This document shows, one piece after another, positions 43,792-59,774 of a DNA stretch of 64,000 bases. The notes beneath the pieces are model-generated. The model saw only the letters and a list, made by a program, of their open reading frames with translations, searched no databases and was not told where the DNA came from. Position 1 is the stretch's first letter; every line of letters starts with the position of its first letter. The DNA lies in NCBI GenBank assembly GCA_965227295.1, contig OZ245742.1:736001-800000 (forward strand), written 5' to 3'. Source of the stretch: Leptonemataceae bacterium. Its GTDB lineage: Bacteria; Spirochaetota; Leptospiria; Leptospirales; Leptonemataceae. A program made the position numbers and the translations under genes.

Positions 43792-44296
43792 ATGGCGAAT
43801 CGATATGAGCAGGTACCGGACCGATTGTGGCAGCTGATCGAACCACTGATGCCCGCGGAAGAGCCGAAGCCGTACGGAGGCCGTCCCCGGAAGAGCTGGC
43901 GCGCGGTGATGAATGGGGTTCACTACAAGTTATGGACGGGGCGTCAATGGGAAGCGATTCCCTCGTCGATCATCAACGGCAAGACGTGTCATCGAAGATA
44001 TCAAGAACTGGTCGAAGCTGGTGTATTCGATCAGATTCTTGAGCTGATGCCACAAGAAGAAAGGTCTTCGATACCAATGGGCGACGCTGGATTCTTCGAT
44101 GGTGAAAGCGCCGAAAAAAGGGGGCTCACCGGTCCGAATCCGACTGACCGTGCTAAATCCGGCGTAAAACTGCACGTTTTGACGGATGAACGCGGCATCC
44201 CGTTGTCCGCCGGTATCACGGCCGCGAACGTTAACGATATTTTTCTCGTGGCTGCTGCCCTCGATCATGTTCGCATGCGCGCTCCCCGCGGGCCAG
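43792..44296 (+). pseudogene. Truncated IS5-family transposase
   Basis: DUF4096-type N-terminus (WQLIEPL...GGRPR...TGRQWEAIP...TCHRRY); AAAAAAGGGG frameshift motif at ~44115; GPNPTDRAKSGVKLHVLTD; LDSS motif out of frame; sequence breaks into a CRISPR half-repeat at 44297. Confidence 0.85.
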
Positions 44297-44427
44297 GGGG
44301 ATGGACCGTTTCGCTTCGTCTTTACAAAATTGTATCACCGGTATTCCCCACGCGTGTGGGGATGGACCGACGTAGGCTATATCCCCGAGGACGTCGTCGA
44401 GGTATTCCTCACGCACGTGGGAATCCT
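44297..44427 (+). CRISPR. Array A (remnant): half repeat, 1 full and 1 degenerate repeat, 2 spacers
   Basis: GGGGATGGACCG at 44297, repeat at 44341, degenerate repeat at 44402; 32-nt spacers. Confidence 0.85.
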
Positions 44428-44556
44428 CTAATATTCATTGGAGTGCGATTAGCAGCCACAGCCAGATAGAACGTCACCGATCTGGAGGACACCCGACTCA
44501 TTCTTCCTTTTCCTCGTTGACTTGACATGCGGTAAAATACTAAACAGGTTGTTAGA
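44428..44556 (+). promoter_or_regulatory. CRISPR leader (type 1)
   Basis: AT-richer; ends GTTGACTTGACATGCGGTAAAATACTAAACAGGTTGTTAGA; near-identical to 48562-48693. Confidence 0.85.
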
Positions 44557-45073
44557 GTATTCCCCACGCACGTGGGGATGGACCGTCGAGGCCGACTTGC
44601 GCGTCAGGTTCGGCGATGTATTCCCCACGCACGTGGGGATGGACCGAACGCAGCGCCCGCTTCCCGGGCATTACCAAGGTATTCCCCACGCACGTGGGGA
44701 TGGACCGGTGAGTACGGAAAAGAGTACAAAGACCAGGAGGTATTCCCCACGCACGTGGGGATGGACCCAATTCTGCTCGCCGGGACGCGGTTGTGTCCTG
44801 GTATTCCCCACGCACGTGGGGATGGACCGCCGCGTATAGGTGCTTCAACTGATCCCCGATCGTATTCCCCACGCACGTGGGGATGGACCGCCTTCAGGCC
44901 CATTCCGCCGTTGATTGCATCCGTATTCCCCACGCACGTGGGGATGGACCGGTGAACCTGAACCCGGTAGAGGCTGTCCGCCGGTATTCCCCACGCACGT
45001 GGGGATGGACCGTTTCCAACGAGCGTTTGAACGAAGTCGATATCGTATTCCCCACGCACGTGGGGATCTATCG
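44557..45073 (+). CRISPR. Array B, type I-E: 9 repeats / 8 spacers, repeat GTATTCCCCACGCACGTGGGGATGGACCG
   Basis: 29-nt repeats at 61-nt period; last repeat degenerate. Confidence 0.97.
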
Positions 45074-45204
45074 CTAATATTTATTGGAGTTTGATTAGCA
45101 ACCTCATTCAGATAGGAACGCGTCACCTATCCGGCGGACATCCGAATCATCGTTCCTTTCCTTGTTGACTCGCAATGCGGGAAAATACTAAACAGGTTGT
45201 TAGG
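45074..45204 (+). promoter_or_regulatory. CRISPR leader (type 2)
   Basis: Closely similar to 47791-47922; same 3' motif as the other leaders. Confidence 0.85.
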
Positions 45205-46332
45205 GTATTCCCCACACGCGTGGGGATGGACCGCCGTAGTGCCGAGAAGAATTGCGGACGAAAGAGTATTCCCCACACGCGTGGGGATGAACCGGGGAGC
45301 TGACGCTCCGCAACCCGTCCGAAGAGAGTATTCCCCACACGCGTGGGGATGGACCGACTGGTGGTAGGACTAATTTATTAATAACTCAGTATTCCCCACA
45401 CGCGTGGGGATGGACCGACAGTGGCGGGGCCACGACTTCGGCCCCGAACGTATTCCCCACACGCGTGGGGATGGACCGGGGTCAGATTACAGGTCAATTC
45501 AGGGGTCGCCGTATTCCCCACACGCGTGGGGATGGACCGATCACACCCTCTATTTGCGGCTGGCTCGTGAGGTATTCCCCACACGCGTGGGGATGGACCG
45601 TGGGTCAGCATGGCTGAGATCTTTTTGAGCCTGTATTCCCCACACGCGTGGGGATGGACCGGACGTGGGTGAGATGGTGGAACCACTCAACGCGTATTCC
45701 CCACACGCGTGGGGATGGACCGGTTCACAGCCTCGCCTCGCAAACATCTTTCGCGTATTCCCCACACGCGTGGGGATGGACCTGCTCTACAAGACTCCGC
45801 GTGTGCTCATCCAGCGTATTCCCCACACGCGTGGGGATGGACCGAAACACGCCGCCGAGAAGCAACGCCGCGCCTAGTATTCCCCACACGCGTGGGGATG
45901 GACCGCAGGGTGAAGCGGACTTCACTGAAGAACCACGGTATTCCCCACACGCGTGGGGATGGACCGCGAAGGCGCTCGCTCATTCTTGTTCTTGCGGCGT
46001 ATTCCCCACACGCGTGGGGATGGACCGGGCGGAAGCGTGATCGTCGGCAGGTTGCGCGGGTATTCCCCACACGCGTGGGGATGGACCGATCGTGTAGAGC
46101 AGCCCGTTTTGTGACGGTGTGTATTCCCCACACGCGTGGGGATGGACCGACAAGGTCTGCGACGGCGATCGTCTTCGGACCGTATTCCCCACGCGCGTGG
46201 GGATGGACCGAAAGAAGTGAAGGTTAGAACATCCGGGGATAGGCATTCCCCACGCATGTGGGGATCGACCGGCTCGATCCATAGCGCGCAGACATGCCAT
46301 GTCGCATTCCCCACACGCGTAGGGATCTCCCC
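45205..46332 (+). CRISPR. Array C: 19 repeats / 18 spacers, repeat GTATTCCCCACACGCGTGGGGATGGACCG
   Basis: 61-nt period (one 33-nt spacer); last three repeats diverge. Confidence 0.97.
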
Positions 46333-46488
46333 TTCTCCCACTAAAGTACTACAAAACCAACCTAAGACCCCGCAATGACCGACCATCCAATCCAATAACC
46401 CCTCATAAATGCCCCGGAAAACCAGGGTCTCCACTCAAACCCACTCAAGGCCGCCAACTCCCGCACCGAAGACAAAACGAGGCCACAC

Positions 46489-47367
46489 ATGAACCGGGAC
46501 TTACAGGAAATACCGCGCTTCGATCATAACTGGTCGTTTCTATATTTCGAAAAAGGTCGCATCCAACAAGAACTGCAAACCGTTGCATACTGCTATCTCG
46601 AAAAGAAGATCCCCGTTCCCATCGAAACGTTGTCGCTGCTCATGCTCGGCCCCGGCACCAGCATCACGCACGAGGCCGTCAAACGCATCGCCGATTCCCG
46701 CTGCCTGCTCGCCTGGGTCGGCGAAGAAGGCATTCGATTCTATGCCGGCGGTTCTCCCGGAACGTACTCCTCGCGCCATCTGTTGCAACAGGTCTACAGC
46801 TACGCGAACGACATCGAGCGCATGAAGATCGTCCGGCGCATGTATCAGATGCGCTTCGATGAAGTCGTCGACACGAACGTTACCCTCGAACAACTCCGCG
46901 GCATGGAAGGCGCACGCGTACGCAAAGCCTACGCGGCCGCCGCCGAAGAATTCGGCGTCGAGTGGACCGGACGCAGTTACGACCAGAACGATTGGCGCGC
47001 CGGTGATCCGGTCAACCGCGCGCTCTCGGCGGCGAACTCCTGCCTCTACGGCCTCTGCCACGCGGCGATCCTGTCGCTCGGCTGTTCCCCCGGCATCGGC
47101 TACATTCATACCGGCAAACAACTATCGTTCGTCTACGACATCGCCGATCTCTACAAAACCGAGATCACCATCCCCATCGCGTTCCAGGAAGGCCAGGCAC
47201 CGGCAGCCGTAGAATCGCGCACCCGCCACGCCTGCCGGGATCGCTTTCGCGAAACACGTCTCATCAAACGCATCATCCCCGACATCATGGAGGTTCTGTA
47301 TGGTAATCGTCGTGCTGGAGAACGCGACACCGGGACAGAGGGGCGTGATGTCGCGGTTAACTATTGA
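46489..47367 (+). CDS. cas1: Type I-E Cas1
   Basis: LMLGPGTSITHEA, WVGEEG, EQLRGMEGARV, NRALSAANSCLYG, IHTGKQLSFVYDIADLYK. Confidence 0.97.
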   Translation: MNRDLQEIPRFDHNWSFLYFEKGRIQQELQTVAYCYLEKKIPVPIETLSLLMLGPGTSITHEAVKRIADSRCLLAWVGEEGIRFYAGGSPGTYSSRHLLQQVYSYANDIERMKIVRRMYQMRFDEVVDTNVTLEQLRGMEGARVRKAYAAAAEEFGVEWTGRSYDQNDWRAGDPVNRALSAANSCLYGLCHAAILSLGCSPGIGYIHTGKQLSFVYDIADLYKTEITIPIAFQEGQAPAAVESRTRHACRDRFRETRLIKRIIPDIMEVLYGNRRAGERDTGTEGRDVAVNY

Positions 47368-47641
47368 ACTCAAGGCCGGTGTCTTTGCCGGCAATCTCAA
47401 TCGCCGCATCCGCGACAAACTCTGGGACCGCATCGTCCACAAATGGAACGCGAACGCCTTGCTGATCTACACCACGAACACCGAACAGGGCTACGCGGCC
47501 CGTTCACACGGCGACACCAGCCGCGAACTTGTCGAGATCGAAGGCATGGTTCTTACGCAGTTCACCCGGCGTAAACATCGTAAGTCGAATGATGATGATG
47601 CGGTTGATGCGGATCATGTCGGCGGGGCTGGGGGCATGTAA
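47300..47641 (+). CDS. cas2: Type I-E Cas2
   Basis: MVIVVLENA...RG.MSR..IE..AGVFAG...RIRDKLW...TEQGY...VEIEGMVL. Confidence 0.93.
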   Translation: MVIVVLENATPGQRGVMSRLTIELKAGVFAGNLNRRIRDKLWDRIVHKWNANALLIYTTNTEQGYAARSHGDTSRELVEIEGMVLTQFTRRKHRKSNDDDAVDADHVGGAGGM

Positions 47642-47700
47642 GGCGCGGTTCCTTTTGTTCGTTGACTTGTGATGTGCGAAACTACTTAACAGGTTGTGTC

Positions 47701-47790
47701 GTAGTCCCCACGCATGTGGGGATGGACCGCGCCTGCGGCCCCCACTGCCCGCCCGGACTGTGTATTCCCCACGCGTGTGGGGATCCATCG
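47701..47790 (+). CRISPR. Array D (mini): 2 imperfect repeats / 1 spacer, after a short degenerate leader (~47648-47700)
   Basis: GTAGTCCCCACGCATGTGGGGATGGACCG and GTATTCCCCACGCGTGTGGGGATCCATCG, 61 nt apart. Confidence 0.85.
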
Positions 47791-47922
47791 CTAATATTTA
47801 TTGGAGTTCGGTTAGCAACCACATTCAGATAGGAACGCGTCACCTATCCGGCGGACATTCGAAGCATTGTTCCTTTTCCTCGTTGACTTGACATGCCGGA
47901 AACTACTAAACAGGTTGTTAGA
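47791..47922 (+). promoter_or_regulatory. CRISPR leader (type 2 copy)
   Basis: Similar to 45074-45204. Confidence 0.85.
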
Positions 47923-48561
47923 GTATTCCCCACGCACGTGGGGATGGACCGGAGTCCCCCGCCATGGGAGAAGAAGATCAGCAGTATTCCCCACGCACGT
48001 GGGGATGGACCGGAGGCGCGGGCTCAAGATGAAAGCAGAGATTGCGTATTCCCCACGCACGTGGGGATGGACCGGTCACCTGGAATTCGATCCGGCACAC
48101 ATGGGTGTATTCCCCACGCACGTGGGGATGGACCGCCGTCGGAGGTAAAGGAAGATGAAAGCTAAAGGTATTCCCCACGCACGTGGGGATGGACCGCACA
48201 CCTACATCCGCCGGTCCCTAAAGATTGAGTATTCCCCACGCACGTGGGGATGGACCGGAGCACACAAGCGCATGAGGACTCAAGAAATCGTATTCCCCAC
48301 GCACGTGGGGATGGACCGATGCGCACTCAGGTTCCATCACAATTCTCTGCGTATTCCCCACGCACGTGGGGATGGACCGGGGCCCTGCCCGGTTACGCTG
48401 GCGGGGGTGGCGTATTCCCCACGCACGTGGGGATGGACCGTCGGAGGCGCGCCCGGCGGGTTGCTATACTTGGTATTCCCCACGCTCGTGGGGATGGACC
48501 GCTGAGCGATCGGCGCTACAACGAACTCCGTAAGTATTCCCCACGCACTGTGGGAATACCG
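47923..48561 (+). CRISPR. Array E: 11 repeats / 10 spacers, repeat GTATTCCCCACGCACGTGGGGATGGACCG
   Basis: 61-nt period (one 33-nt spacer); terminal repeat degenerate. Confidence 0.97.
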
Positions 48562-48693
48562 CTAATATTCATTGGAGTGTGATTAGCAGCCACAGCCAGA
48601 TAGAAACGCATCACCGATCTGGAGGACACCCGACTCATTCTTCCTTTTATCCGTTGACTTGACATGCGGTAAAATACTAAACAAGTTGTTAGA
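48562..48693 (+). promoter_or_regulatory. CRISPR leader (type 1 copy)
   Basis: Near-identical to 44428-44556. Confidence 0.85.
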
Positions 48694-49637
48694 GTATTCC
48701 CCACGCGTGTGGGGATCGACCGATTACGAATCCATTCGGGCCGATTTTGTCGGGGTATTCCCCACGCGTGTGGGGATCGACCGGTGGCTGCACGGAAAAT
48801 GGAAGCAGATTTACTGTATTCCCCACGCGTGTGGGGATCGACCGTGACCCTGGAGGACGGCAACGTCCACGAGGGGGTATTCCCCACGCGTGTGGGGATC
48901 GACCGTATTCTCAGGCGTCTGATTGACGTCATTTGGTGTATTCCCCACGCGTGTGGGGATCGACCGGGTTGCCTGGTAGTCGAGGATTGGGGCGGCGAGT
49001 ATTCCCCACGCGTGTGGGGATCGACCGCGCCTGGAGCCTGCCATTCGTCCACTCATCGCGTATTCCCCACGCGTGTGGGGATCGACCGCAGGCCGCTATC
49101 GATAAGGCCCGGGAAGAATCGTATTCCCCACGCGTGTGGGGATCGACCGCCCGAGAAGATCGAACATGGGTAGGGTATTGAGTATTCCCCACGCGTGTGG
49201 GGATCGACCGCTGTGGGCGCACTTCGTGATCCTCTTCTGCCAGTATTCCCCACGCGTGTGGGGATCGACCGATCCCGCTGAGCGAATACCGCGAAGCCGT
49301 TGCGTATTCCCCACGCGTGTGGGGATCGACCGCCCCGACGCAGCCTCGTTGACGGAGTGTATGGGTATTCCCCACGCGTGTGGGGATCGACCGGTGCGGT
49401 CATCGTCGAGAATGCCGGCACACAAGTATTCCCCACGCATGTGGGGATGGACCGTGCTACCACGGGGACGGCGGTCGCGATCTTCAGTATTCCCCACGCA
49501 CGTGGGGATGGACCGCCGATTTTCGTGATGATTTCATGTTCCTTTAAGTATTCCCCACGCGCGTGGGGATGGACCGCCCCGAGACCCGGCTTCCACGCTC
49601 CAGGGTGAGTATTCCCCACGCGTGTGGGGATTAGCCG
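48694..49637 (+). CRISPR. Array F: 16 repeats / 15 spacers, repeat GTATTCCCCACGCGTGTGGGGATCGACCG
   Basis: First 12 repeats end GATCGACCG; the next three end GATGGACCG; last degenerate. Confidence 0.97.
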
Positions 49638-49784
49638 CTAATAAACATTTAGGAGTTGTTAGTATCGTTGATCTTCGATGCGCCTCTTGCAAAACAACAC
49701 GTCTCCTGATTGGTAGACATGCGAAGCACGACTCCTATTAATCGTTGACTTGCAATGCGCAAAAATACTAAACAGGTCGTTAGA
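49638..49784 (+). promoter_or_regulatory. CRISPR leader (type 3, divergent)
   Basis: Starts CTAATA; ends GTTGACTTGCAATGCGCAAAAATACTAAACAGGTCGTTAGA. Confidence 0.8.
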
Positions 49785-50300
49785 GTATTCCCCGCGTATG
49801 CGGGGATGGACCGGTCGGGCGGGAGAAGAGCTACCACGCCGTCTTGTATTCCCCGCGTATGCGGGGATGGACCCAGCCGAACCCTACTACAGGCACTGGC
49901 GGAATCGTATTCCCCGCATACGCGGGGATGGACCGCCGTCGCGCCCGGACAGCCCGTTCGTGTCCGCGTATTCCCCGCATACGCGGGGATGGACCGCTGC
50001 TGACCAATTGATTGTCACTGTAGGCCAGTATTCCCCGCATACGCGGGGATGGACCGTCCACGGCCTCGCCGAGCTTCGGATTGTACGGGTATTCCCCGCG
50101 TACGCGGGGATGGACCGTGGACACCCTGGATCGGAACTTTGAGCTGGCGGTATTCCCCGCATACGCGGGGATGGACCGAACCAGTCACGCCGGAGGAGTA
50201 ACCAGAAAACGTATTCCCCGCGCATGCGGGGATAGACCGTCGATTTCGTCGTCTACGCCTTCGCCCTGGACGTATTCCCCGCGCATGCGGGGATCGGCCG
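49785..50300 (+). CRISPR. Array G: 9 repeats / 8 spacers, repeat GTATTCCCCGC(N4)GCGGGGATGGACCG
   Basis: 61-nt period (one 31-nt spacer); stem has G-C where the other arrays have A-T. Confidence 0.97.
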
Positions 50301-50486: not shown

Positions 50487-53477
50487 GTGCTCACCTACAA
50501 CCAGTACTGGGGCAAAGCCCGCCCGTCTTCGAAACAGAAGGCCTCATACCACCTCCTCCCCCACCACTCCCTCGACGTGGCCGCATGCGGCGCGGTGCTC
50601 CTCGAACAGCGCCCGCGCCTCCTCGAACTCCTCGTCCACCAGAGCGATCTCCCCGCAAACGTCATCCGCGAACTAATCCCATACTATCTAACCATACACG
50701 ACCTCGGCAAATTCGCCCTCCCCTTCCAGGCCCTGGCACCGGATACGCTGCAAACCCTGAGCAATCGACAAACCGACCGCAAATACACCGTCCGCCACGA
50801 CCACCTCGGCTTTCTCGTCTGGCGCAAACGAATCCGCAAACTACAGCTCGCTAACTGGCAGCAAAAAGAAGTCTGCACCGCAGAAAACGCAAGCATCCTG
50901 CGCAACATCATAGACCCCGCCGTCATCGCGGTCACCGGCCACCACGGCCGCCCGTCGAACTACCCGCACAATTCTCAGGGGGAAGCATTCCTCGAAGACC
51001 ACTTCACCACCGAAGACATCGAGGCCGCCCTCGCATTCACCCTCGCCGCGTCCGACCTGCACCTCGACGCCACATACGAATACTTCCGAACAACGCTGCG
51101 CAACCACGCATCACAACCCGAAGCCATCCAACGCCGACACCGGCGACTCTCGCACTGGATCGCCGGCCTCGGTGTGCTGTGCGATTGGCTCGGCTCCCAG
51201 GCCGACGCATACTTTCCCTACAACGCGCAGGCCGCGTCATCTCTCGCCGAATACTATCACGAAGACGCCCTGCCCCGCGCCCGTGATGCCGTCCCGCACG
51301 CCGGCCTCGCCCCGGCTCCGGCGCGCGCGCTCACTTCGTTTGCGTACCTGTTTCCCGCGCTCCGGCGCCCCACCCCGCTCCAGCACGCTGCCGAAACCAT
51401 CCCGCTCCCCGCGGAACCGCAGCTCTTCGTCATCGAGGACAGCACCGGCTCCGGCAAAACCGAAGCGGCCGGCATGTTCATCCATCGCCTGCTCGCCGCC
51501 GGACTGGCCGACGGCCTGTACTTTGCCCTGCCCACCACCGCCACGGCCGATGCCATGTACACGCGCTTTACCGGCGCCGACGAATCCCTGCATAGTTTCT
51601 ATCGCAAGCTGTTTGCCGATGAAAGTTACCCGTCGATCGTCCTGGCACATAGCTGGAGTCGCCTGCATTCGGGCTTTCTCAGAACGATCATCACCCCGCC
51701 GGAGAATCTGCTCGCCGACCAGGGCGAAACCTACGGTGCCGACGACACCGGCGCCACGGCGTTCTGCAACATCTGGTTCACCGACCAGCGTAAGAAGGCG
51801 CTCCTGGCCGACGCCGGCATCGGCACCGTCGACCAGGCGTTGCTCGCCGTCCTGCAGGCGAAGCACCACGCCCTCCGTCTCATCGGACTCACCCGCAAGG
51901 TCCTCATCGTCGACGAGGTCCACGCCTACGATCCGTACATGCACCACACGCTCCGTCGACTGCTCCACTTTCACGGAGCCGGCGGAGGATCGGCCATCCT
52001 GCTCTCGGCCACCCTGCCCGCCCGCGACCGGAACGAGTTAATTGAAAGCTATCAAAGCGGACTGCGCATCTACCAGGAACTTCCGGAGCAGGAAGATGAT
52101 CCCGCCGATCCGCAAGACGATGCGGCCACCGCCGCTAAACATCCGGCGAGCGTACCTTACCCGCTGCTCACGCGGGCCGGCGCGTCCGGAATTCGCGAGT
52201 ATGCCGTAGAAACCACGTCGCGCAGTCGCCGCCGCGTGCGCATCAGGCGTATCCCCAATGCCGACGCGGCGCTCGATCACGTCCTCGAACAGGCCGCCCA
52301 GGGCAAATGCGTCTGCTGGATACGCAACACCGTCAACGACGCCATCGAAGCCTACGAACAACTACGCGCCCGCACGGAAAGAGCCGCACACACCACGGCC
52401 TTCCATACACCACCGGACATCCTCTTTCACGCGCGCTTCGCTCTCGGCGATCGACTCGCGATCGAACGCCGGGTCCTGGCATCCTTCGGCAAGACGAGCA
52501 CGGCCACAGCACGCCGCGGACGCATCGTCATCGCCACGCCCGTGGTCGAACAATCCCTCGATCTCGACTTCGACGTCCTGCTTTCCGATCTCGCGCCCAT
52601 CGATCTACTATTACAACGCCTCGGCCGCTTGCGCCGGCACCAACGCGACGCAGGCGGCAACCCACTCGCCACGGACAGCGACGACGGTCGCGGCGAAATC
52701 GAGTTCGCCGTGGTATCACCCGACCCGATCGACGAACCGTCGCCCGCATGGTACAAAGCCGACTTTCCCCGCGCCGAATACGTGTATCGCGACACGGGCC
52801 GCTTATGGCTCTCCGCCCGCGCCCTCTTCGAGCGCGGCGAACTACACATGCCGGACGATTCGCGTGCGCTCATCGAAGAAGTCTACGGACCCGGATCGCA
52901 CGAACGCATCCCGCCAGGCTTACGTGCGGCATCCGAAAAGGTACGCGGCAAAGCCGCCGCGGATCGCAGCACGGCCGATCACAATACCCTCGATCTGGAT
53001 ACCGGCTACAAAGTTGCGTACGGCGAAACTTACGCGGACGACTACCGCTCCCCCTCGCGTCTCGGCGAACCCACCGTGCGACTCTACCTCGCGCGCTACG
53101 ACAGCAAACAGCGGCGCCTGGCACCGTGGATTCAACCGGAAGCAGTGGATGATTCACAAACAACACAGCAAGATGCGGCAACCCAACAACGCCTCGCCGC
53201 GCTCCATGCGTGGGAGTTGAGCACGGTAACGGTGGCCACCCGCAAAATCGCCGGCCAGGCGCAGCCGGAACATCCCGAACATGCGCAGGCCCTGGCCGCG
53301 TGGAAAGAGTCCCGCCCGGATCGCGGTCGCTACAGCCCGGTCATTCTTCTTGAACCCGATGTCGCCACAAATCCCACCGCGGACCCGACCGGCGAATGGA
53401 CCGGCCAGGCCCGCAATGAAAAAGGCAGCCTGGTCCAGGTCCGCTACTCGGCGGAACTGGGGCTGCGGGTAGATTGA
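50487..53477 (+). CDS. cas3: Cas3 HD nuclease-helicase
   Basis: WGKA, HSLDVAA, IHDLGK, GHHG, CDWLGS, TGSGKTEA, ALPT, DEVHAYD, LSATLP, HARF, VVEQSLDLDFD, QRLGRLRRH. Confidence 0.97.
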   Translation: MLTYNQYWGKARPSSKQKASYHLLPHHSLDVAACGAVLLEQRPRLLELLVHQSDLPANVIRELIPYYLTIHDLGKFALPFQALAPDTLQTLSNRQTDRKYTVRHDHLGFLVWRKRIRKLQLANWQQKEVCTAENASILRNIIDPAVIAVTGHHGRPSNYPHNSQGEAFLEDHFTTEDIEAALAFTLAASDLHLDATYEYFRTTLRNHASQPEAIQRRHRRLSHWIAGLGVLCDWLGSQADAYFPYNAQAASSLAEYYHEDALPRARDAVPHAGLAPAPARALTSFAYLFPALRRPTPLQHAAETIPLPAEPQLFVIEDSTGSGKTEAAGMFIHRLLAAGLADGLYFALPTTATADAMYTRFTGADESLHSFYRKLFADESYPSIVLAHSWSRLHSGFLRTIITPPENLLADQGETYGADDTGATAFCNIWFTDQRKKALLADAGIGTVDQALLAVLQAKHHALRLIGLTRKVLIVDEVHAYDPYMHHTLRRLLHFHGAGGGSAILLSATLPARDRNELIESYQSGLRIYQELPEQEDDPADPQDDAATAAKHPASVPYPLLTRAGASGIREYAVETTSRSRRRVRIRRIPNADAALDHVLEQAAQGKCVCWIRNTVNDAIEAYEQLRARTERAAHTTAFHTPPDILFHARFALGDRLAIERRVLASFGKTSTATARRGRIVIATPVVEQSLDLDFDVLLSDLAPIDLLLQRLGRLRRHQRDAGGNPLATDSDDGRGEIEFAVVSPDPIDEPSPAWYKADFPRAEYVYRDTGRLWLSARALFERGELHMPDDSRALIEEVYGPGSHERIPPGLRAASEKVRGKAAADRSTADHNTLDLDTGYKVAYGETYADDYRSPSRLGEPTVRLYLARYDSKQRRLAPWIQPEAVDDSQTTQQDAATQQRLAALHAWELSTVTVATRKIAGQAQPEHPEHAQALAAWKESRPDRGRYSPVILLEPDVATNPTADPTGEWTGQARNEKGSLVQVRYSAELGLRVD

Positions 53478-53565
53478 TCCCCACTTACGTGGGGAAGGAA
53501 AACGCACACGGAACACGTATGCGGAACATTCCCGGTGGATTCCCGAGAATGGACATGTTTTCTCG
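53474..53565 (+). ncRNA. Candidate crRNA-like RNA (degenerate repeat, 32-nt spacer, degenerate repeat)
   Basis: TTGATCCCCACTTACGTGGGGAAGGAAAACG keeps the repeat hairpin; exactly 32 nt later GGATTCCC (7/8 match to the repeat start) is followed by a CGAGAA/TTCTCG hairpin. Confidence 0.6.
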
Positions 53566-53642
53566 ACCAGGCCCAAAGCTCAATTCATCGTCCTTGGGCA
53601 CGTCCTTCATTACACAGAACACATATGCTTTGATTTTTTTCA

Positions 53643-53671
53643 TTGACATTGCCGACAAGGCGGGTTAATAT
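53643..53671 (+). promoter_or_regulatory. Sigma70-type promoter for small ORF / Cascade operon
   Basis: TTGACA (53643-48), 17 nt, TAATAT (53666-71), preceded by a T-tract. Confidence 0.75.
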
Positions 53672-53699
53672 CCCCGAAAGAACCGACAAGGAGCGCTCC

Positions 53700-53825
53700 A
53701 TGAAAATCGAATCCGATGTATATTCCTTAGTAAGGCTTCCGGAACGAGGAATTATTCTCATCATTAGACAAAATCAGATAGTAGTGCTAAGGGACTATCG
53801 TATCGTGCGCCACATTAACCTGTAG
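53700..53825 (+). CDS. 41-aa small ORF ahead of cas8e (candidate toxin or leader peptide)
   Basis: AAGGAG RBS at 53688-93; MKIESDVYSLVRLPERGIILIIRQNQIVVLRDYRIVRHINL; ends 6 nt before the cas8e GTG. Confidence 0.55.
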   Translation: MKIESDVYSLVRLPERGIILIIRQNQIVVLRDYRIVRHINL

Positions 53826-53831
53826 TCGACC

Positions 53832-55508
53832 GTGTCCCAACTATCCTTCCACTTACTCGATGACCCCTGGCTCCCCGTCCGCCGCAGCAGCGGCGCCGAG
53901 ACCTGGATCACCCCCGCGGACATCACGTCCAATCCCGGCAATGATCCGGTCGTCGCCCTGGCGAGTCCGCGGCCGGACTTCGACGGCGCGCTGCTACAGT
54001 TTCTAATCGCACTGCTGCAATCCACCTGTGCGCCGACGTCATCCCAGGAGTGGCTCAAACGATTCGTAGATCCGCCCTCCCCCGGTGAACTACGAGAACT
54101 CTTCGCCGTAGACGAATCAGCCTTTGCCTTCGCGGGCGAAAAACTACCCTCGCGCTTCTTACAAGACGTCGAACTCGCCTTCGATCCCGACGACGCCGTG
54201 CCCATCGCCGGCCTGCTCATTGATTCCCCGGGCGCGAAGACCCTCAAGGACAACGCCGATCATTTCGTAAAGCGCGACCGCGTGAACGGACTGTGCGCGG
54301 CCTGCACAGCGACAGCCCTGTTCACGTTGCAAACGAACGCACCCTCCGGCGGCGTCGGCCATCGCACCTCACTGCGCGGCGGCGGACCACTGACGACTCT
54401 GCTCACTCTCGATCCGGCAACGACCTTACCGAACACACAGCGCCCCACACTCTGGCACGATCTCTGGTTGAACGTCCTGCCGCTGGCCCCCAGGGATGCG
54501 GGCCGGCGCACATCCAAAACGAAACGCGCAGACATCTATCCCTGGCTCGCTCCCACGCGCACCAGCGACAAGAGCGGCGTGCTCACCACGCCCGATGATG
54601 TCCACGCTCTACAAATGTACTGGAACATGCCCCGGCGCATCGTCTTCGATCCGGAGACGACGCCCGGCGATTGCGATCTCTGCGGGCGCAAAGATGAACT
54701 CTATACACGTTACGCGACGAAAAACTACGGCACGAACTACAGCGAAGGTTTTCGACATCCGCTCAGCCCGCACTACAAAGACGAGAAGACCGGCGCCACA
54801 TCACCCCTGCACCCCCAGCCGGGCGGCATGACGTATCGCTACTGGCTGCGACTCATGCTTCCGACAAAAGAAGCCAACAATCTGCCCGCGCATGTCGTCA
54901 CGGCCTTCGAAGGCCGGCGGCAGGACGGTGATCTGGAGGACATAGACGATCTCGATTATCTGCTCTACGCCTTCGGCTACGACATGGACAACATGAAAGC
55001 CCGCGCATACTACGAGGCGCGCATGCCGGTCCTGTTTGTATCCAAAGACGTTCGTGAAGTATTCGCGCGTCTGGTCGCGGACATGTTGAACGGAGCGAAT
55101 CAGTTCGCCGGCAATACCCGCAACGCCGTAAAGCAGGCCTGGTTTCGCCGGCCCCAGGACGTCCGCGGCAATGCCGACTTCATTCGCGATGAATTCATCC
55201 AGGCTACCGAAACCGGATTCTACGATCATCTCCACCGGCTGAAGCAGCAGGGCGAAGATGGCCGAACGGTCCTCACGGAATGGCACGCGCATCTACATCG
55301 CGCGTCTCTCGCGACGTTTCACAAATACGCTCCGCCGCCCCAGGCCCGCTCCCGGCACATGCAGCGCTACGTCGAAGCGATCCGCTTTCTCTTGATGTGC
55401 AACTATTCGAAGAAGCTCAAAAACTTGCTCAACGTTCCCGAGAAAAAGTTCGTCCCACCGGAGGACGCAATCGAAGGCATCGCACGGGAGGACGCATTAC
55501 ATGCATAA
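53832..55508 (+). CDS. cas8e: Type I-E large subunit Cas8e (Cse1/CasA)
   Basis: FHLLDDPWLPV, RPDFDGAL.QFLI, DHFVKR, CAAC...LQTNAPSGGVGHRTSLRGGGPLTT, YWNMPRRI, HPLSP. Confidence 0.95.
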   Translation: MSQLSFHLLDDPWLPVRRSSGAETWITPADITSNPGNDPVVALASPRPDFDGALLQFLIALLQSTCAPTSSQEWLKRFVDPPSPGELRELFAVDESAFAFAGEKLPSRFLQDVELAFDPDDAVPIAGLLIDSPGAKTLKDNADHFVKRDRVNGLCAACTATALFTLQTNAPSGGVGHRTSLRGGGPLTTLLTLDPATTLPNTQRPTLWHDLWLNVLPLAPRDAGRRTSKTKRADIYPWLAPTRTSDKSGVLTTPDDVHALQMYWNMPRRIVFDPETTPGDCDLCGRKDELYTRYATKNYGTNYSEGFRHPLSPHYKDEKTGATSPLHPQPGGMTYRYWLRLMLPTKEANNLPAHVVTAFEGRRQDGDLEDIDDLDYLLYAFGYDMDNMKARAYYEARMPVLFVSKDVREVFARLVADMLNGANQFAGNTRNAVKQAWFRRPQDVRGNADFIRDEFIQATETGFYDHLHRLKQQGEDGRTVLTEWHAHLHRASLATFHKYAPPPQARSRHMQRYVEAIRFLLMCNYSKKLKNLLNVPEKKFVPPEDAIEGIAREDALHA

Positions 55509-56133
55509 CGACAACCCATTCGAACGCCTGGAGGTCGCCAGGCAATTCGCCGGGCTGCTTGAGCGCGTCAACGAATCACGCGGTGATCGTGCGATGCTCC
55601 GGCGCTGTCGCGATCCGCACGAAGTTCTCGGCACGCGCATGTTCGCGGAATACTCGCGCCGTCTTCTCGGCAAGGAATTCCCGGAACTCATCAACAATCC
55701 CCCCGAGGACCACCAGCTCGGCATGGCCGCCGCTATCGGCCTGCTGGGTCATGTACGCCGAAACCGTGTCGTTCGGTTTTCGTACGCTGTGGACTTTCGC
55801 TCCCGCTTCGCCGCACAGTTAGGGAAAGGACCGGAAGATTCACGACCACGCCTGAGCGAATTGCGTTTCCGCCGTCTGGTAGCCTGCCAGGACCGCATCA
55901 CCCTCTATCCTCAAATCATTCGCGCCATCCATCAACTCGGCGATAGCGTCGACCTCGTCAGTCTCGCCGGGGCCCTGTACGACTGGCGACCGGGTGCGAC
56001 CGGTGATCCGCTGCGGCGACGCTGGTCATACGCATACTACAGTACCTTCACCGAAAACTATCCCACATCCTTCCAGGAAGGCAGCCCCGGACCTGCCGGA
56101 AATACAACGGACTCAACGGAGAACACCGAATGA
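55501..56133 (+). CDS. cse2: Type I-E small subunit Cas11 (Cse2/CasB)
   Basis: RGDRAMLRRC, LSELRFRRL, RRWSYAYY; operon position. Confidence 0.92.
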   Translation: MHNDNPFERLEVARQFAGLLERVNESRGDRAMLRRCRDPHEVLGTRMFAEYSRRLLGKEFPELINNPPEDHQLGMAAAIGLLGHVRRNRVVRFSYAVDFRSRFAAQLGKGPEDSRPRLSELRFRRLVACQDRITLYPQIIRAIHQLGDSVDLVSLAGALYDWRPGATGDPLRRRWSYAYYSTFTENYPTSFQEGSPGPAGNTTDSTENTE

Positions 56134-57257
56134 AACGCTTCTTACAACTACACATCCTCACGAGCTATCCGCCATCGAACGTCAACCGTGACGATCTCGG
56201 CCGGCCGAAGACCGCCGTAATGGGCGGCCGGGAGCGGTTACGCATATCCTCACAAAGCCTCAAGCGCGCGTGGCGGACCTCGGAAGTCTTCGAAGCGGCG
56301 GTCGCGCAGGAGCATCGCGGTGTGCGCACGAAAGAACTCGGCAAGCAGGTATACTCTAAGCTTCTCGAAGAAGGCGTCAAAGAAAAGGACGCGCGCGAGT
56401 GGGCCCGAGACGTCGCCGGAGTATTCGGAAAGCTGCGTAAGCCCGCGGAATCGAAAAAGTCAAAGAAAGACGATTCCGAAAAAACGAGCCAGCGCAAAGA
56501 ACTACAGGACCTGGAGATCGAACAACTGGTGCACGTCGGCCAACCCGAACTGGACGCCATCGCGGAACTCATCAACGAATTGGTGAAGCGCGGCAAAGGA
56601 CCGACGGACGAAGACCTCGAGTTACTGCGCAAAGAGACCCACGCCGCGGACATCGCCCTCTTCGGACGCATGCTGGCATCCTCGCCTAACTACAACGTCG
56701 AAGCGGCGGCCCAGGTCGCCCACGCGCTCACCGTGCATTCGGTCGCCGTCGAGGACGACTTCTTCTCCGCGGTCGATGATTTGAATCGCGGCGACGAAGA
56801 CAGAGGCGCCGGCCACCTCGGCAGCACCGAATTCGCGGCGGGTCTGTTCTATCTCTACATCTGCATCGATCGCAATCTATTGCAAGACAACCTGCGCAAC
56901 GACGGCCAGGTAGACCCCACCGCTGCGGAACAGGCCATCCGCGGCCTCGTCGAAGCCGCCGCCACGATTCCGCCCGGCGGCAAACAGAACTCGTTCGGCA
57001 GCCGCGTCTACGCCTCGCGTGTGCTCGCCGAAAAAGGCGACGGCCAGCCGCGCTCGCTATCGGTGGCGTATCTTCGTCCCGTAAACGAGGCGGCCCATAA
57101 CGAAGATCTTCTCGCCGACGCAATACAGGCCATGGACCAAACGCGAGAAGATTTCGAACGCGCCTACGGACCTACCACCGCCGCACCCTACAATCTCGAC
57201 GTGCCCGGCCGCAAAGGTACGCTCGCCGAACTCTTAGACTATTGCGTAAGCGAATGA
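56130..57257 (+). CDS. cas7: Type I-E Cas7 (Cse4/CasC)
   Basis: LQLHILTSYPPSNVNRDDLGRPKT, RISSQSLKRAWR, DIALFGRMLA, DFFSAVDD, PGGKQNSF. Confidence 0.97.
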   Translation: MKRFLQLHILTSYPPSNVNRDDLGRPKTAVMGGRERLRISSQSLKRAWRTSEVFEAAVAQEHRGVRTKELGKQVYSKLLEEGVKEKDAREWARDVAGVFGKLRKPAESKKSKKDDSEKTSQRKELQDLEIEQLVHVGQPELDAIAELINELVKRGKGPTDEDLELLRKETHAADIALFGRMLASSPNYNVEAAAQVAHALTVHSVAVEDDFFSAVDDLNRGDEDRGAGHLGSTEFAAGLFYLYICIDRNLLQDNLRNDGQVDPTAAEQAIRGLVEAAATIPPGGKQNSFGSRVYASRVLAEKGDGQPRSLSVAYLRPVNEAAHNEDLLADAIQAMDQTREDFERAYGPTTAAPYNLDVPGRKGTLAELLDYCVSE

Positions 57258-57276
57258 GCACAGCAGACGATCATCG

Positions 57277-58059
57277 ATGAGCAAGAACCGCGCATATCTA
57301 CTCTTTCGTCTCTATGGACCGCTCGCCTCGTTCGGAGACACGGCCGTCGGAGAGTACCGTCCGACCTACGACCGCCCCTCGAAGTCCGCGGTGCTGGGCC
57401 TCGTCGCGGCGGCGCTGGGCATCCGTCGCGACGAGATCGGTGTTCACGAAAGCCTGGAGCGACAGTTAGGCTTCGGCGTGCGGGTGGAATCCGCCGGCAT
57501 GTTGATGCGTGACTTTCACACCAGCCAGGTCCCGCCGGCACGACTGCATCGCATCTATCCCACGCGACGCACAGAGTTGCTTTCATCGGATCTTACAACC
57601 ATCCTGTCCACGCGCGACTATCGCTGCGACGCGCTGTATCACGTCGCACTCTGGCACGTGCCCGGCCAGACGAAAAAACTCGTGGCATCACTCGAAGACA
57701 TTCAGCAAGCGTTACGGCAACCGAAGTTTACACTCTATCTCGGACGCAAATCATGTCCGCTCGCCTTCCCGCTCGCTCCGCAACTCGTCGAAGCACGCAA
57801 TCTTCGATCGGCTTTCCACAATGCCGGGACAAAGAATACGGCGGACTCCGCACAAGAACAGCTCCTGCAGCAATTGAAGCGCGGTCTGCGCATTCGCAAT
57901 AGCGAACGAGCACGAATCTATTGGGAAGGCGACGACTCGGGTTTCCAGGCGCATACCGCGGCACAGCGCCGCGACCGCGTCACGAATCGACAACGCCAGC
58001 AGTTCGGCAACCGCACGGAGTACCAGGGCCTCGACGACACCGCAGGGGACGCAGACTGA
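57277..58059 (+). CDS. cas5: Type I-E Cas5 (CasD)
   Basis: LYGPLASFG, PSKSAVLGLVAAALGIRR, DFHT, RDY, LYLGRKSCP. Confidence 0.96.
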   Translation: MSKNRAYLLFRLYGPLASFGDTAVGEYRPTYDRPSKSAVLGLVAAALGIRRDEIGVHESLERQLGFGVRVESAGMLMRDFHTSQVPPARLHRIYPTRRTELLSSDLTTILSTRDYRCDALYHVALWHVPGQTKKLVASLEDIQQALRQPKFTLYLGRKSCPLAFPLAPQLVEARNLRSAFHNAGTKNTADSAQEQLLQQLKRGLRIRNSERARIYWEGDDSGFQAHTAAQRRDRVTNRQRQQFGNRTEYQGLDDTAGDAD

Positions 58060-58748
58060 TGTACTTCAGTAAGATCGAAGTTCCGCCCCCCGGCTTCGGC
58101 CGTCCTCTGCCGTTGGGAGATCCCTACAGCGTCCACCAATCGATGTGGGCCCTCTTCCCCGAAGATCCCAATGCGCAGCGCGATTTTCTGTATCGCCAGT
58201 TGGATGATTCCGCGCGATCTTTTTACGTAGTCTCCGCACGTCGCCCGCAAGCTACCAGCGCACTCCCGTGGCAGATCCGCACAAAACAATACGATCCTCG
58301 CGTCTCGTCCGGACAACGACTCTGGTTCGAAGTCCGCGTCAATCCCACGGTGACACGCTCAGACGGCAGCCGACAACAGCGCCACGACTACGTCATCGAT
58401 TACAAAAAACGCCTGGAAAGCACGGCCGAAGCCGAACTCCCGTCCCCCGGCCGATTGCTACACGACGCCGCGTGTGAGTGGTTGGACAAACGCTGTGAGT
58501 CTCACGGCTTTACGTTCGAATCGCACGCGCTACGCGTACAAGATCGCGATTATCTTAAGTTTAAGAAGGGCTCAGCTTCGCCCGAAGTCACCATCGGCAC
58601 ACTCGATCTGGCCGGCCTGCTCACGGTCCAGGACCCGCAGCGCTTTCGCGAAACTCTCTATAACGGCATTGGTCGCTCTCGTAGCTTCGGCTGTGGTTTG
58701 CTGCTGGTCCGGCGTTCGGGGGGCCCGGGGATACACTCTTTACTTTAG
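58059..58748 (+). CDS. cas6e: Type I-E Cas6e (Cse3/CasE)
   Basis: ATG overlaps the cas5 TGA; YSVHQSMWALF, FLYR, VNPT, GIGRSRSFGCGLL G-rich loop. Confidence 0.96.
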   Translation: MYFSKIEVPPPGFGRPLPLGDPYSVHQSMWALFPEDPNAQRDFLYRQLDDSARSFYVVSARRPQATSALPWQIRTKQYDPRVSSGQRLWFEVRVNPTVTRSDGSRQQRHDYVIDYKKRLESTAEAELPSPGRLLHDAACEWLDKRCESHGFTFESHALRVQDRDYLKFKKGSASPEVTIGTLDLAGLLTVQDPQRFRETLYNGIGRSRSFGCGLLLVRRSGGPGIHSLL

Positions 58749-59370: not shown

Positions 59371-59405
59371 AGGAAAGCCGCCCCGACAAGCGGGGCGGCT
59401 TTCCT
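59371..59405. terminator. Perfect hairpin, probable terminator of the minus-strand STAS gene
   Basis: AGGAAAGCCGCCCCG-ACAAG-CGGGGCGGCTTTCCT overlapping the stop codon. Confidence 0.7.
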
Positions 59406-59742
59406 ACCCCTGCACGGACATCACCGCTTCTTCTTCGCTGTCATACACTGCAAAGAACGAAATCAGCTTCGTCAACGTGAGCACGTGCCGGGTGGCCGGG
59501 GAGAGACACGCCAGAGCCAGGCGGCGGTCCTTCTTGCCTAACTGCTGAGAAAATGAAATTAAGGCGCCGACGCCGCTGGAGTAGATCGTCTCGACGTTTT
59601 CCATGTTGATGACGACGTGATTATCCGAAGTTTCGAGACAATCCTGAAGGATGTCGCGCAGGGCCGGCATGTTGTAGATGTCCATGACACCCCAGACCTC
59701 GAAGATCGTGACGCCGTCCTGTTGTCGCTGCTCAATGTCCAT
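59404..59742 (-). CDS. STAS-domain anti-sigma factor antagonist
   Basis: G.MDIYN..LR, VVINMENV..I.SSGVGAL, VLTLTKL..FF.VY. Confidence 0.9.
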   Translation of the reverse strand: MDIEQRQQDGVTIFEVWGVMDIYNMPALRDILQDCLETSDNHVVINMENVETIYSSGVGALISFSQQLGKKDRRLALACLSPATRHVLTLTKLISFFAVYDSEEEAVMSVQG

Positions 59743-59774
59743 GAGTTCGTCGATACTTCGCGCAGTAGACCGCA

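Follow-up and report, generated by a model that had tools for sequence, protein, structure and literature searches.

The gap between cas3 and cas8e of a type I-E CRISPR-Cas locus in a Leptonemataceae bacterium holds a degenerate one-spacer CRISPR, antisense to cas3, that probably guides Cascade to repress the promoter that serves both its own operon and a small open reading frame (ORF); judging from the DNA sequence, we put the probability of this reading at about 0.7. The element itself is real, and it is best read as a CreA/CreR-type regulatory crRNA-like gene, a kind of circuit that is already known. It lies in a 64,000-nt stretch of contig OZ245742.1, referred to here as the window, and the features under discussion are listed in Table 1.

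Anatomy of the mini-array and its target

The locus has a full I-E effector set that includes the repeat-processing enzyme, with Cas3, Cse1/Cas8e, Cse2, Cas7, Cas5e and Cas6e each above curated cut-offs, and the genes for Cas1e and Cas2e are placed between the CRISPR arrays of the window. The cas3-cas8e gap is 354 nt long and contains the mini-CRISPR, a promoter-like site and the small ORF. This gap does not have the properties of an ordinary CRISPR array: the two repeats of the mini-array are unlike each other and unlike the 29-nt array repeat, the ~160-nt leader family of the arrays has no copy there, and the spacer shows only a partial match, to the host's own promoter region, whereas a spacer of an ordinary array is of foreign origin and matches in full. 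Contigs from two sequencing runs of one study are identical to the window over 52000-56000; both probably include the source sample, so they are uninformative on variants and on expression. A look for RNA runs covering 53000-54400 gave none.

Table 1. Features of the cas3-Cascade region, in window coordinates.
Feature	Position	Strand	Remarks
cas3 (type I-E)	50487..53477	+	stop TGA 53475-53477
psiR-down (downstream degenerate repeat)	53479..53499	-	predicted 21-nt 3' handle; perfect stem-loop
psiS (pseudo-spacer), 22 nt	53500..53521, read 53521->53500	-	14 of first 16 nt pair with target
5' handle AUGUUCCG	53522..53529	-	matches the arrays' handle AUGGACCG at 6/8 positions
psiR-up stem-loop (upstream degenerate repeat)	53530..53548	-	6-bp stem, 7-nt loop
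Target (protospacer) of pseudo-spacer	53606..53627	-	paired part 53627->53612
PAM 5'-AAG-3'	53628..53630	-	CTT on + strand; canonical I-E
Promoter-like site TTGACA - 17 nt - TAATAT	53643..53671	+	TTGACA at 53643; 10/12 to consensus; consensus scan
Shine-Dalgarno AAGGAG and 41-codon ORF	53688..53825	+	AAGGAG 53688-53693; ATG 53700; stop TAG 53823-53825
Cascade operon	53832..58748	+	five genes, cas8e/cse1 first, cas6e last
cas8e/cse1	53832-55508	+	start codon GTG at 53832
cse2	55501-56133	+	
cas7	56130-57257	+	
cas5	57277-58059	+	
cas6e	ending at 58748	+	

Read on the minus strand, two degenerate repeats surround one spacer, the upstream one keeping a 5' handle and the downstream one a 3' stem-loop. 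The downstream repeat (psiR-down) has a 5-nt flank (53499->53495) and then the perfect stem-loop CCCCAC-GUAA-GUGGGG (53494->53479), which in plus-strand letters is the CCCCAC-TTAC-GTGGGG hairpin that the initial annotation had described at the cas3 stop; it begins 1 nt past that stop, at 53479-53494. Allowing at most one mismatch, we counted the stem pattern 58 times in the window, 57 of them in arrays and one at the mini-array, against 0.19 expected from shuffles. Exact copies of the stem also number 58 genome-wide: 56 in arrays, the one at the mini-array and one at genome position 5,624,031. This last copy, in an unrelated intergenic region, may be due to chance; the estimate from base composition is ~1.4 chance copies per genome. 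The 5' handle retains U, G, C and C at the columns that do not vary across all 24 aligned elements, and its two deviating positions are variable positions of the relatives. The stem of the upstream repeat (psiR-up), in which 53548-53543 pairs with 53535-53530, ends exactly at this handle, and RNAfold predicts that it is lengthened to 9 bp (53551-53527). An alternative minus-strand handle, AUCCACCG (53540->53533), which would go with a 33-nt spacer, was rejected, as its best target reached 9/15 with a CGA flank. Rfam gave nothing on the mini-array; on the array repeats it gave only weak sub-threshold matches, to an unrelated family. The pseudo-spacer contains, on the minus strand, a terminator-like hairpin followed by a U-tract; a terminator-like hairpin also occurs inside the pseudo-spacer of one related locus (L029).

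The guide and its target match at 14 of the first 16 positions, the exceptions being guide positions 5 and 12, and at none beyond; the target carries a canonical PAM. No other AAG-flanked site in the whole 5.9-Mb genome matches the guide as well (1 mismatch in that scan): the next best sites have 2 mismatches in one case and 3 in five. Shuffled guides reached 13/15 in 5/5000 trials, and AAG was present in none of those 5. The target stops 13 nt short of the -35 hexamer, with no overlap, in the zone where the downstream promoter would have its UP element, and repression from this position is plausible, not certain. The promoter-like site, confirmed as the initial annotation had described it, is the sole sigma-70-like site in 53350-53950 and is presumed to drive the 41-codon ORF and then cas8e and the rest of the Cascade operon. 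The consensus scan of 53350-53950 gave no sigma-70-like promoter on the minus strand, nor was a convincing one seen by eye; a suitably placed antisense promoter is present in 2/6 relatives scanned (L009 and L074).

These features suggest how the circuit would work. Cas6e would cleave a minus-strand transcript at the degenerate hairpin of psiR-up, leaving the handle AUGUUCCG; we assume this cleavage, and the 7-nt loop and a stem unlike that of the array repeat speak against it. Cas6e would remain on the perfect downstream hairpin, and the product would be a crRNA-like RNA of ~51 nt with a 22-nt guide. Cascade loaded with this RNA would recognise the AAG-flanked 53627->53606, pairing over ~16 nt. 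As both the pairing and the guide would be too short to license Cas3 cleavage, the complex would occupy the UP-element zone, 13 bp upstream of the -35 hexamer, and would repress the promoter of the 41-codon ORF and the Cascade operon. This would place Cascade under negative feedback, relieved when it is titrated by crRNAs or disabled by anti-CRISPRs, and if the small ORF is toxic, the cell would be made dependent on Cascade, as in CreTA.

Conservation in related type I-E loci

There are no close relatives with the locus (0/2 among same-genus genomes). Cas8e matches occur in 7/61 related genomes including the window's own, the best other one at 44% identity, and the best Cas8e identity in the genome and metagenome collections is 48-50%. 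We compared 39 related type I-E loci, namely a set of 23 from genomes and a non-duplicate set of 16 from metagenomes. All of them have a solitary hairpin element at the same position, the 3' end of cas3; in 20/23 of the genome set, the end of a cas3-sized ORF (≥770 aa) falls in the range from 37 nt inside the equivalent hairpin to 41 nt before it. Spacer and target sequences are all different among the 39 loci, yet they are always matched to each other. On the minus-strand reading, AAG lies beside the best match in 21/23 loci of the genome set, where 22/23 score 11-15/15, and in 15/16 of the metagenome set, that is, in 36/39 related loci against a background of 1.9%. Mismatches cluster at guide positions 6 and 12 in the genome set (17/22 and 19/22) and likewise in the metagenome set (13/15 at each), which are the bases that Cascade flips out. 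The available part of a survey of regulatory mini-arrays describes mismatches at every sixth position as tolerated (10.1101/2023.03.03.530964). Guide position 5, which is part of the seed and is not flipped out, is mismatched in the window and in only 1/37 scored relatives (1/22 and 0/15).

The pseudo-spacers of the relatives fall into two length classes 12 nt apart, 20-22 nt (7/23 and 8/16) and 32-34 nt. Their upstream stem sequences vary between loci with pairing kept, and in 22/24 elements, the window's included, the closing base of the predicted stem directly precedes the handle. A covariance model built from the genome-set relatives only, with no window sequence in it, matched 23/80 metagenome loci at 27-68 bits, all on the minus strand; the 16 loci of the metagenome set are the non-duplicates among these 23. 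On the window, it aligned in full length at 53551->53479 (minus strand) with 13.9 bits and an E-value of ~2e-4, in agreement with our placement of the handle and with psiR-down at model positions 62-83; as the palindromic hairpin alone scored 14.1 bits on the plus strand, the model adds little beyond the hairpin here.

The small ORF and competing readings

The 41-codon ORF begins 6 nt after an AAGGAG and stops 6 nt before the GTG of cas8e, which has no obvious Shine-Dalgarno of its own, and it is a candidate for either a CreT-like toxin or a leader ORF for translational coupling. Among 5.8 billion proteins, a search of those of 22-72 residues found only the ORF itself, so it is an orphan whose coding status conservation is unable to demonstrate. 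It matched no NCBIfam family, nor the HMM of one small-protein family from the relatives. Its atlas look-alikes were fragments of eukaryotic beta-propellers, with recognition below an informative level, and were treated as noise. The GC content of the ORF is 0.40, against 0.59-0.64 in the cas genes, its codon adaptation is at the 2.6th percentile, and 6/40 codons are rare (10, 12, 23, 27, 30 and 31). The maximum Kyte-Doolittle hydrophobicity over 17 residues is 1.0. Behind the targeted promoter position, 36/39 related mini-array loci have an ATG-initiated ORF of at least 25 aa; those of 29 loci form six recurrent small-protein families, three of them predicted to be single-helix membrane peptides.

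Toxin control could even be the main job of the module, as in CreTA proper, with the ORF encoding a toxic peptide, the mini-array serving as antitoxin and loss or inhibition of Cascade arresting the cell. This is a variant of our best explanation and not an alternative to it, and we regard it as possible but tentative. The layout equals that of the validated I-E module of Citrobacter rodentium point for point, as far as the available part of its description extends (PMC12055562), and both the ribosome-binding motif and the recurrence of small ORFs in relatives point in the same direction. However, the ORF is an orphan without a strongly hydrophobic segment, its GC content and codon adaptation, both low, are also what a non-coding, AT-rich promoter region would show, and it might serve coupling only, because it stops so close to a cas8e start that lacks an obvious Shine-Dalgarno. 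Its rare codons are also scattered (the first nine codons contain none, and the only neighbouring pair is 30 and 31), rather than in tandem right after the start codon as in the CreT of Haloarcula hispanica.

It is unlikely, in our estimate, that the element is a decaying CreA/CreR relic that has stopped working through the seed mismatch, changes to the upstream hairpin or loss of its promoter, in which case the operon would be constitutive or controlled by a protein. The rare mismatch at guide position 5 and the lack of a predicted antisense promoter would fit such decay, as would a covariance-model score of 13.9 bits against 27-68 bits in metagenome relatives. Against this, the AAG and the 14/16 pairing are intact, as are the 3' hairpin, which is perfect, the invariant columns of the handle and the stem that ends exactly there, and an unselected 22-mer would not remain the best AAG-flanked match in 5.9 Mb. 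Very short seed matches are also reported to be enough for Cascade binding in vivo, which we count against decay.

Far less probable is the orientation of the initial annotation, which had described a CreA/CreR-like mini-CRISPR with a spacer matching the Cascade-operon promoter region. The core of that description is upheld by the anatomy and by the 39 related loci, but its strand, spacer, PAM and R-loop direction are not. In that model, an RNA co-transcribed with cas3 would be cut after the hairpin at the cas3 stop, taken as the first repeat, and the 5' part of a 32-nt spacer (53505-53536) would pair with 53611-53628. Transcription would come free through cas3 read-through, GGATTCCC and ATGGAC look like the two ends of the array repeat, and the 15/18 match of 53505-53522 to 53611-53628, which we could reproduce, sits at the 5' end of that spacer; by chance, such a match arose in 2/2000 spacer shuffles for any 18-nt window and in 1/2000 when anchored at the 5' end. 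The 32 nt followed by GGATTCCC are indeed present as letters, but parsing them as a spacer and second repeat is an artefact of the plus strand: the spacer is 22 nt long, the hairpin beside the cas3 stop serves as 3' handle, and the supposed second repeat is the loop and one arm of the antisense upstream hairpin. The plus-strand model also needs a non-canonical PAM (CAT) and a poorly matching 10-nt handle, leaves the 3' end without a Cas6e hairpin and places guide mismatches at positions 1 and 13. Among the 39 relatives, it finds no significant target, with best matches of 9-12/15 and AAG beside 0/23 and 1/16, and 23/23 covariance-model matches in metagenome loci are antisense. On the minus strand, a canonical AAG (53630->53628) replaces the flanking CAT or ATT and the handle is the 8-nt AUGUUCCG without 2 extra nt, so both caveats that had been attached to the element vanish. 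The R-loop then runs from 53627 away from the promoter, and the 32-nt footprint that had been drawn up to 53642 does not hold.

It is just as improbable that no CRISPR-derived regulator is present and that the hairpin is a cas3 terminator or stray repeat, with the 18-mers a duplicated protein-binding box or chance duplication: the minus-strand pseudo-spacer does hold a terminator-like hairpin and U-tract, and direct repeats by promoters are often operator sites, but the plus-strand hairpin has no following T-run, and neither the joint occurrence of an AAG at the match, a handle adjoining the other copy and a stem ending at that handle nor the single architecture of 39 loci, with differing but always matched spacer and target, is explained.

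Given the antisense one-spacer CRISPR, Cascade probably controls its own operon in this genome by means of a dedicated antisense guide RNA, and the level of Cascade would be expected to track crRNA load and to rise under anti-CRISPR attack. A candidate "addiction" peptide could make the loss of Cascade costly. We tentatively propose that the orphan ORF is a CreT-type peptide toxin repressed by Cascade and that small "first genes" behind crRNA-targeted promoters are common in this Cas8e clade, where at least six unrelated families of ~35-60 aa occupy the position behind a promoter targeted by a crRNA-like RNA; we found no description of these families in the literature searched. If this is true, type I-E systems would regularly be accompanied by Cascade-addiction modules with a variety of peptide toxins, which would then be more than one enterobacterium's curiosity. 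Such elements need to be read on both strands, because the palindromic I-E stem hides their orientation, which is revealed by the handle, the PAM and the mismatch pattern at positions 6 and 12. The 39 loci, with 36 AAG PAMs, two spacer-length classes and recurrent small-protein families, are a ready set for estimating the frequency of CreTA-like modules in type I-E.

Comparison with known systems

In the I-B CreTA of H. hispanica, a crRNA-like antitoxin with degenerate repeats reportedly directs Cascade to a neighbouring promoter, which is repressed through partial pairing, and the element in the window resembles it in its crRNA-like guide, its degenerate repeats and its partial pairing at a neighbouring promoter. 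The haloarchaeal module is of subtype I-B and lies between cas6 and cas8, whereas that of the window is I-E and lies between cas3 and cas8e. Its CreT is said to be an RNA that sequesters a rare arginine tRNA via tandem rare codons, while any toxin in the window, where the rare codons are scattered, would be a peptide.

The CreR of Salmonella enterica I-E, for which Cascade autorepression has been measured, is also a degenerate two-repeat mini-CRISPR upstream of casA, with the 5' handle kept by the upstream repeat, the 3' handle by the downstream one and an AAG-flanked target adjoining the casA promoter, according to the available part of its report (10.1101/2023.03.10.532045). It pairs through 15 consecutive matching nucleotides, compared to 14/16 with one seed mismatch in the window, and the same part of that report proposes no toxin ORF, whereas the window has a candidate. 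More broadly, the available part of the survey by Shmakov et al. places mini-arrays between cas3 and cas8, transcribed opposite to cas3, in ~19% of bacterial I-E loci (10.1101/2023.03.03.530964). The window element shares with its class 1 regulatory mini-arrays the cas3/cas8 position, the antisense orientation, the cas8-promoter target and the canonical PAM. In that survey the seed adjoins the better-conserved repeat, and in the window it adjoins the repeat that keeps the handle; the window differs in that its downstream repeat, with the perfect hairpin, is better conserved overall and the upstream one keeps the handle only. The survey is statistical, and it may already list the window locus or its relatives.

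By analogy, the closest parallel is the I-E CreTA module of C. rodentium, which the available part of its description presents as an opposite-strand CreA with a UP-element target, a canonical PAM and a translated orphan toxin ORF of 96 bp (PMC12055562). The PAM is AAG in the window and ATG in C. rodentium, the ORF is 126 bp compared to 96 bp, and the intergenic region is 354 bp compared to 495 bp; toxicity and Cascade dependence have been shown for the C. rodentium module, while in the window both are putative. Both modules lie between cas3 and casA/cas8e with CreA on the strand opposite to the cas genes, both combine partial complementarity at the UP-element zone of a strong promoter with a canonical I-E PAM, and in both a strong ribosome-binding site is followed by a small ORF without homologues.

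Anatomy of an antisense element between cas3 and cas8e

A complete type I-E system, with every Cascade gene, is encoded on the + strand of the window (see the table). Its CRISPR region consists of at least five array modules, not a single array, each preceded by a leader of ~160 nt (copies at 44423, 45072, 47789, 48560 and 49651) with its own TTGAC-type promoter-like box. The repeat loop varies by module (GCAC, ACGC or GCGT), the last module shows the stem variant CCCCGC...GCGGGG (49907-50178), and cas1e and cas2e are placed between modules instead of after cas6e. Beyond cas6e, a STAS gene (anti-sigma-factor antagonist) forms the boundary of the cas locus.

Features of the type I-E locus and of the mini-array (arrows give the direction of reading)
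Feature	Position	Strand	Remarks
CRISPR arrays, several	44280-50300	+	29-nt repeat GTATTCCCCACGCACGTGGGGATGGACCG; spacers mostly 32 nt; own leader copy per array
cas1e and cas2e	46489-47641	+	lodged between arrays
cas3	50487-53477	+	
cas3-cas8e gap			354 nt; site of the element
5-nt flank and perfect hairpin	53499->53479	-	
Pseudo-spacer	53521->53500	-	22 nt
Handle AUGUUCCG	53529->53522	-	6/8 against AUGGACCG of the arrays
Upstream stem-loop	53548-53543 with 53535-53530	-	6-bp stem, 7-nt loop; ends exactly at the handle
Inverted repeat	53571-53599		8-9 bp arms, ~12-nt loop
Target of guide nt 1-16	53627->53612		
AAG	53630->53628		directly 5' of the protospacer
Promoter-like site TTGACA-17-TAATAT	53643-53671		
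Shine-Dalgarno AAGGAG	53688-53693	+	6 nt upstream of ATG 53700
41-codon ORF	53700-53825	+	stops 6 nt ahead of the cas8e GTG
cas8e, cse2, cas7, cas5, cas6e	53832-58748	+	
STAS gene	59404-59775	-	just past cas6e

The initial annotation had pointed to a stem-loop, CCCCAC-TTAC-GTGGGG, at the cas3 stop. It is present at 53479-53494, right after the stop, as are GGATTCCC 32 nt past it and the proposed promoter-like site, the sole one returned by a scan of 53350-53950. Read on the - strand, the element consists of an upstream stem-loop, a handle (the 8 nt directly 5' of the guide), a pseudo-spacer that forms the guide, and a perfect hairpin. The handle keeps all four columns that are invariant in 24/24 aligned elements and deviates solely at two positions that vary among relatives. 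In 22/24 elements, the window's included, the predicted upstream stem closes immediately 5' of the handle (RNAfold), and its sequence differs from locus to locus. A covariance model made without the window sequence gave a full-length - strand alignment to 53551->53479 (13.9 bits, E ~2e-4) and put the handle at the same place as our parse; since on the + strand the model hit the palindromic hairpin only, at 14.1 bits, it confirms the parse and adds little score. A second candidate handle (53540->53533, with a 33-nt spacer) was rejected, as no target for it was found.

Several folding features accompany the element. The 131-nt - strand stretch 53600->53470 has a folding z of -3.5, with 0/200 shuffles as stable, and in an antisense precursor the inverted repeat between mini-array and target would give the leader a stable hairpin. 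Self-pairing within the pseudo-spacer (53503-53523, - strand) yields an 8-bp stem with UUUUCCUU after it, a combination that the scan calls terminator-like, and a site of the same kind occurs in a related type I-E locus (L029:3698-3717). By eye, the PAM-distal half is complementary to its own seed in many of the relatives' 32-nt pseudo-spacers. Such self-folding could serve RNA stabilization, seed masking or transcription termination.

Related mini-arrays

We found no close relative with the locus (0/2 same-genus genomes), and the best Cas8e identity was 48-50%. A strict search of 87 loci for a perfect I-E-type stem gave 23 relatives in which the cas3-cas8e interval holds a solitary hairpin. 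Loci were dropped where there were three stems at 61-nt spacing, which form an ordinary array (L031), a stem within cas8e (L034), two stems ~3 kb upstream (L049) or a stem downstream of cas8e (L082), and second stems in L004, L010, L022, L033, L054 and L077 were dropped as the element's other repeat or array repeats. When cas8e is placed on the + strand, the relatives' elements read hairpin-AAC...spacer...CGGTTCAT-CCC-hairpin-GGGAAC, which corresponds to a type I-E repeat unit in reverse complement. Their coding strand is therefore opposite to that of the cas genes, an arrangement also reported in a published survey (10.1101/2023.03.03.530964). On the - strand they show GTTCCC-stem-GGG, an 8-nt handle (consensus ATGAACCG), the pseudo-spacer, and GTT with a perfect stem-loop.

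We looked, in the region up to cas8e of these 23 loci, for the sequence that best matches guide positions 1-17 without 6 and 12, the bases that Cascade flips out. The - strand guide reached 11-15/15 in 22/23 loci, and AAG flanked the best match in 21/23, compared with a trinucleotide background of 1.9%. Mismatches concentrated at position 6 (17/22), at position 12 (19/22) and past 16, and the rates at 6 and 12 are about those of unconstrained positions. The covariance model, made from the 23 genome-set elements and run on 80 metagenome loci, matched 23, every one at full length on the - strand; seven were exact duplicates of the genome set, and the 16 new loci had AAG in 15 and mismatches at positions 6 and 12 in 13/15 each. 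The architecture is conserved across these 39 loci despite unrelated spacer sequences. Target orientation varies, with the - strand used in 14/23 and 13/16 loci, a majority to which the window belongs.

Pseudo-spacers of relatives fall into two length classes, 20-22 nt (7/23 in the genome set and 8/16 in the metagenome set) and, for the remainder, 32-34 nt. One Cas7 step in Cascade spans six nucleotides, and the gap of ~12 nt would correspond to two such steps, given this architecture; the bimodal lengths suggest that a shortened Cascade forms on many of these regulatory RNAs. Among six relatives scanned, targets overlapped or adjoined promoter-like sites in four: the PAM overlaps the -35 in L009, the protospacer covers the -35 in L033 and overlaps the site in L003, and the site lies 36 nt off in L074. 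The scan predicted none in L029 and L051.

The target and competing readings

In the window, 14 of guide nt 1-16 pair with the target, the mismatches being at 5 and 12, and none pair past 16. Shuffled guides reached 13/15 in 5 of 5000 trials, with AAG in none. No other AAG-flanked site in the 5.9-Mb genome matches the guide as well as the target, which has a mismatch at 1 scored position; the runners-up are one site with 2 mismatches and five with 3. The PAM ends 13 nt upstream of the -35 hexamer and the protospacer extends away from the promoter; the target would occupy roughly -50 to -73, the UP-element zone, if transcription starts ~7 nt past the -10, and the PAM-side protein of Cascade would reach toward the -35.

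We believe, with a probability of about 0.7, that the element is a CreA/CreR regulatory mini-array, encoding a crRNA-like RNA that guides Cascade to repress a promoter. Cas6e would cleave an antisense transcript at its upstream stem, and the resulting RNA of ~51 nt would assemble a shortened Cascade. Because its pairing is short, this complex may bind without licensing Cas3 and cause both the small ORF and the Cascade operon to be transcribed less, a repression that would be lifted once Cascade is diverted or inhibited. Such repression and its relief have been measured for the S. enterica type I-E CreR (10.1101/2023.03.10.532045).

Counting against this reading are the unusual upstream stem, the mismatch at seed position 5 (seen in 1/37 scored relatives), a target beside the -35 and not on it, and the lack of a predicted antisense promoter on the - strand, by scan of 53350-53950 and by eye; one is predicted in L009 and L074. 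A non-functional relic is an unlikely explanation of the element. The + strand model of the initial annotation, with its spacer at 53505-53536, is very improbable. The match it described, 53505-53522 to 53611-53628, does hold at 15/18 positions, a score attained by 1-2 of 2000 shuffled spacers, and both the duplex and its CreA/CreR character are retained here; the strand is not, as the AAG PAM and the handle fit the - strand. In the 23 relatives the + strand guide scored 9-12/15 with AAG beside no best match, and the 16 new metagenome loci gave noise again. The non-canonical PAM and two extra handle bases it had noted are strand artefacts, and its "GGATTCCC ... ATGGAC" corresponds, on the opposite strand, to the upstream hairpin's loop with the outer arm. 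Readings outside CRISPR have a similarly slim chance. The stem at the cas3 stop is not a chance occurrence, its pattern having 58 matches in the window (57 array repeats and the element) against a shuffle expectation of 0.19. Outside the arrays, the genome has only one further exact CCCCAC-N4-GTGGGG copy, at 5,624,031 beyond the window, intergenic and upstream of an ORF, which fits chance (~1.4 expected by our own estimate).

Small ORFs behind the promoter and comparison with known systems

The first ORF behind the promoter has 41 codons, and no ribosome-binding site is evident for cas8e itself at its start. Protein searches returned no family match for this ORF and no homologue besides itself. 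Its GC content is 0.40 (vs 0.59-0.64 in the cas genes), its codon adaptation ranks at percentile 2.6 among gene slices, and its six rare codons in 40 are scattered, without the tandem arrangement of the H. hispanica RNA toxin. An ATG-initiated ORF of at least 25 aa occupies the same position in 36/39 related loci. In 29/39, the ORFs form six recurrent families of 35-60 aa (e.g., L003:3883-4020, L074:3872-3982, L009:3643-3807, L013:3879-3989, L004:3871-3993 and L144:1390-1500), the first gene behind the targeted promoter and just before cas8e. Three of the six have a strongly hydrophobic helix, and the families are candidate toxic peptides or membrane partners under Cascade repression; none of them includes the window's ORF. 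Two loci have additional small ORFs between targeted promoter and cas8e (L080:3581-3987 and L079:3828-4004), whose translations, by eye, we take to resemble a HicB-type antitoxin, plus a HicA-type toxin in L080. If these identities are true, a classical toxin-antitoxin pair would be under Cascade control.

In the mini-array literature that we consulted, we found neither recurrent small-protein families behind targeted promoters, nor two spacer-length classes, nor the window's orphan ORF. One report describes a type I-E module of C. rodentium with the same layout as the window, namely a strong promoter and RBS, an orphan ORF, an opposite-strand CreA, an UP-element target and a canonical PAM, in which the 96-bp ORF is a translated toxin unleashed on Cascade loss (PMC12055562). 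This shared layout makes the small ORF of the window a reasonable candidate for a toxin. A true toxin role, within the CreA/CreR reading, seems to us possible but doubtful, and the 41-codon stretch may instead serve cas8e solely as a coupling leader, or not be a gene. The element itself has all the testable defining features of a type I-E CreA/CreR mini-array. [quoted passage not shown]
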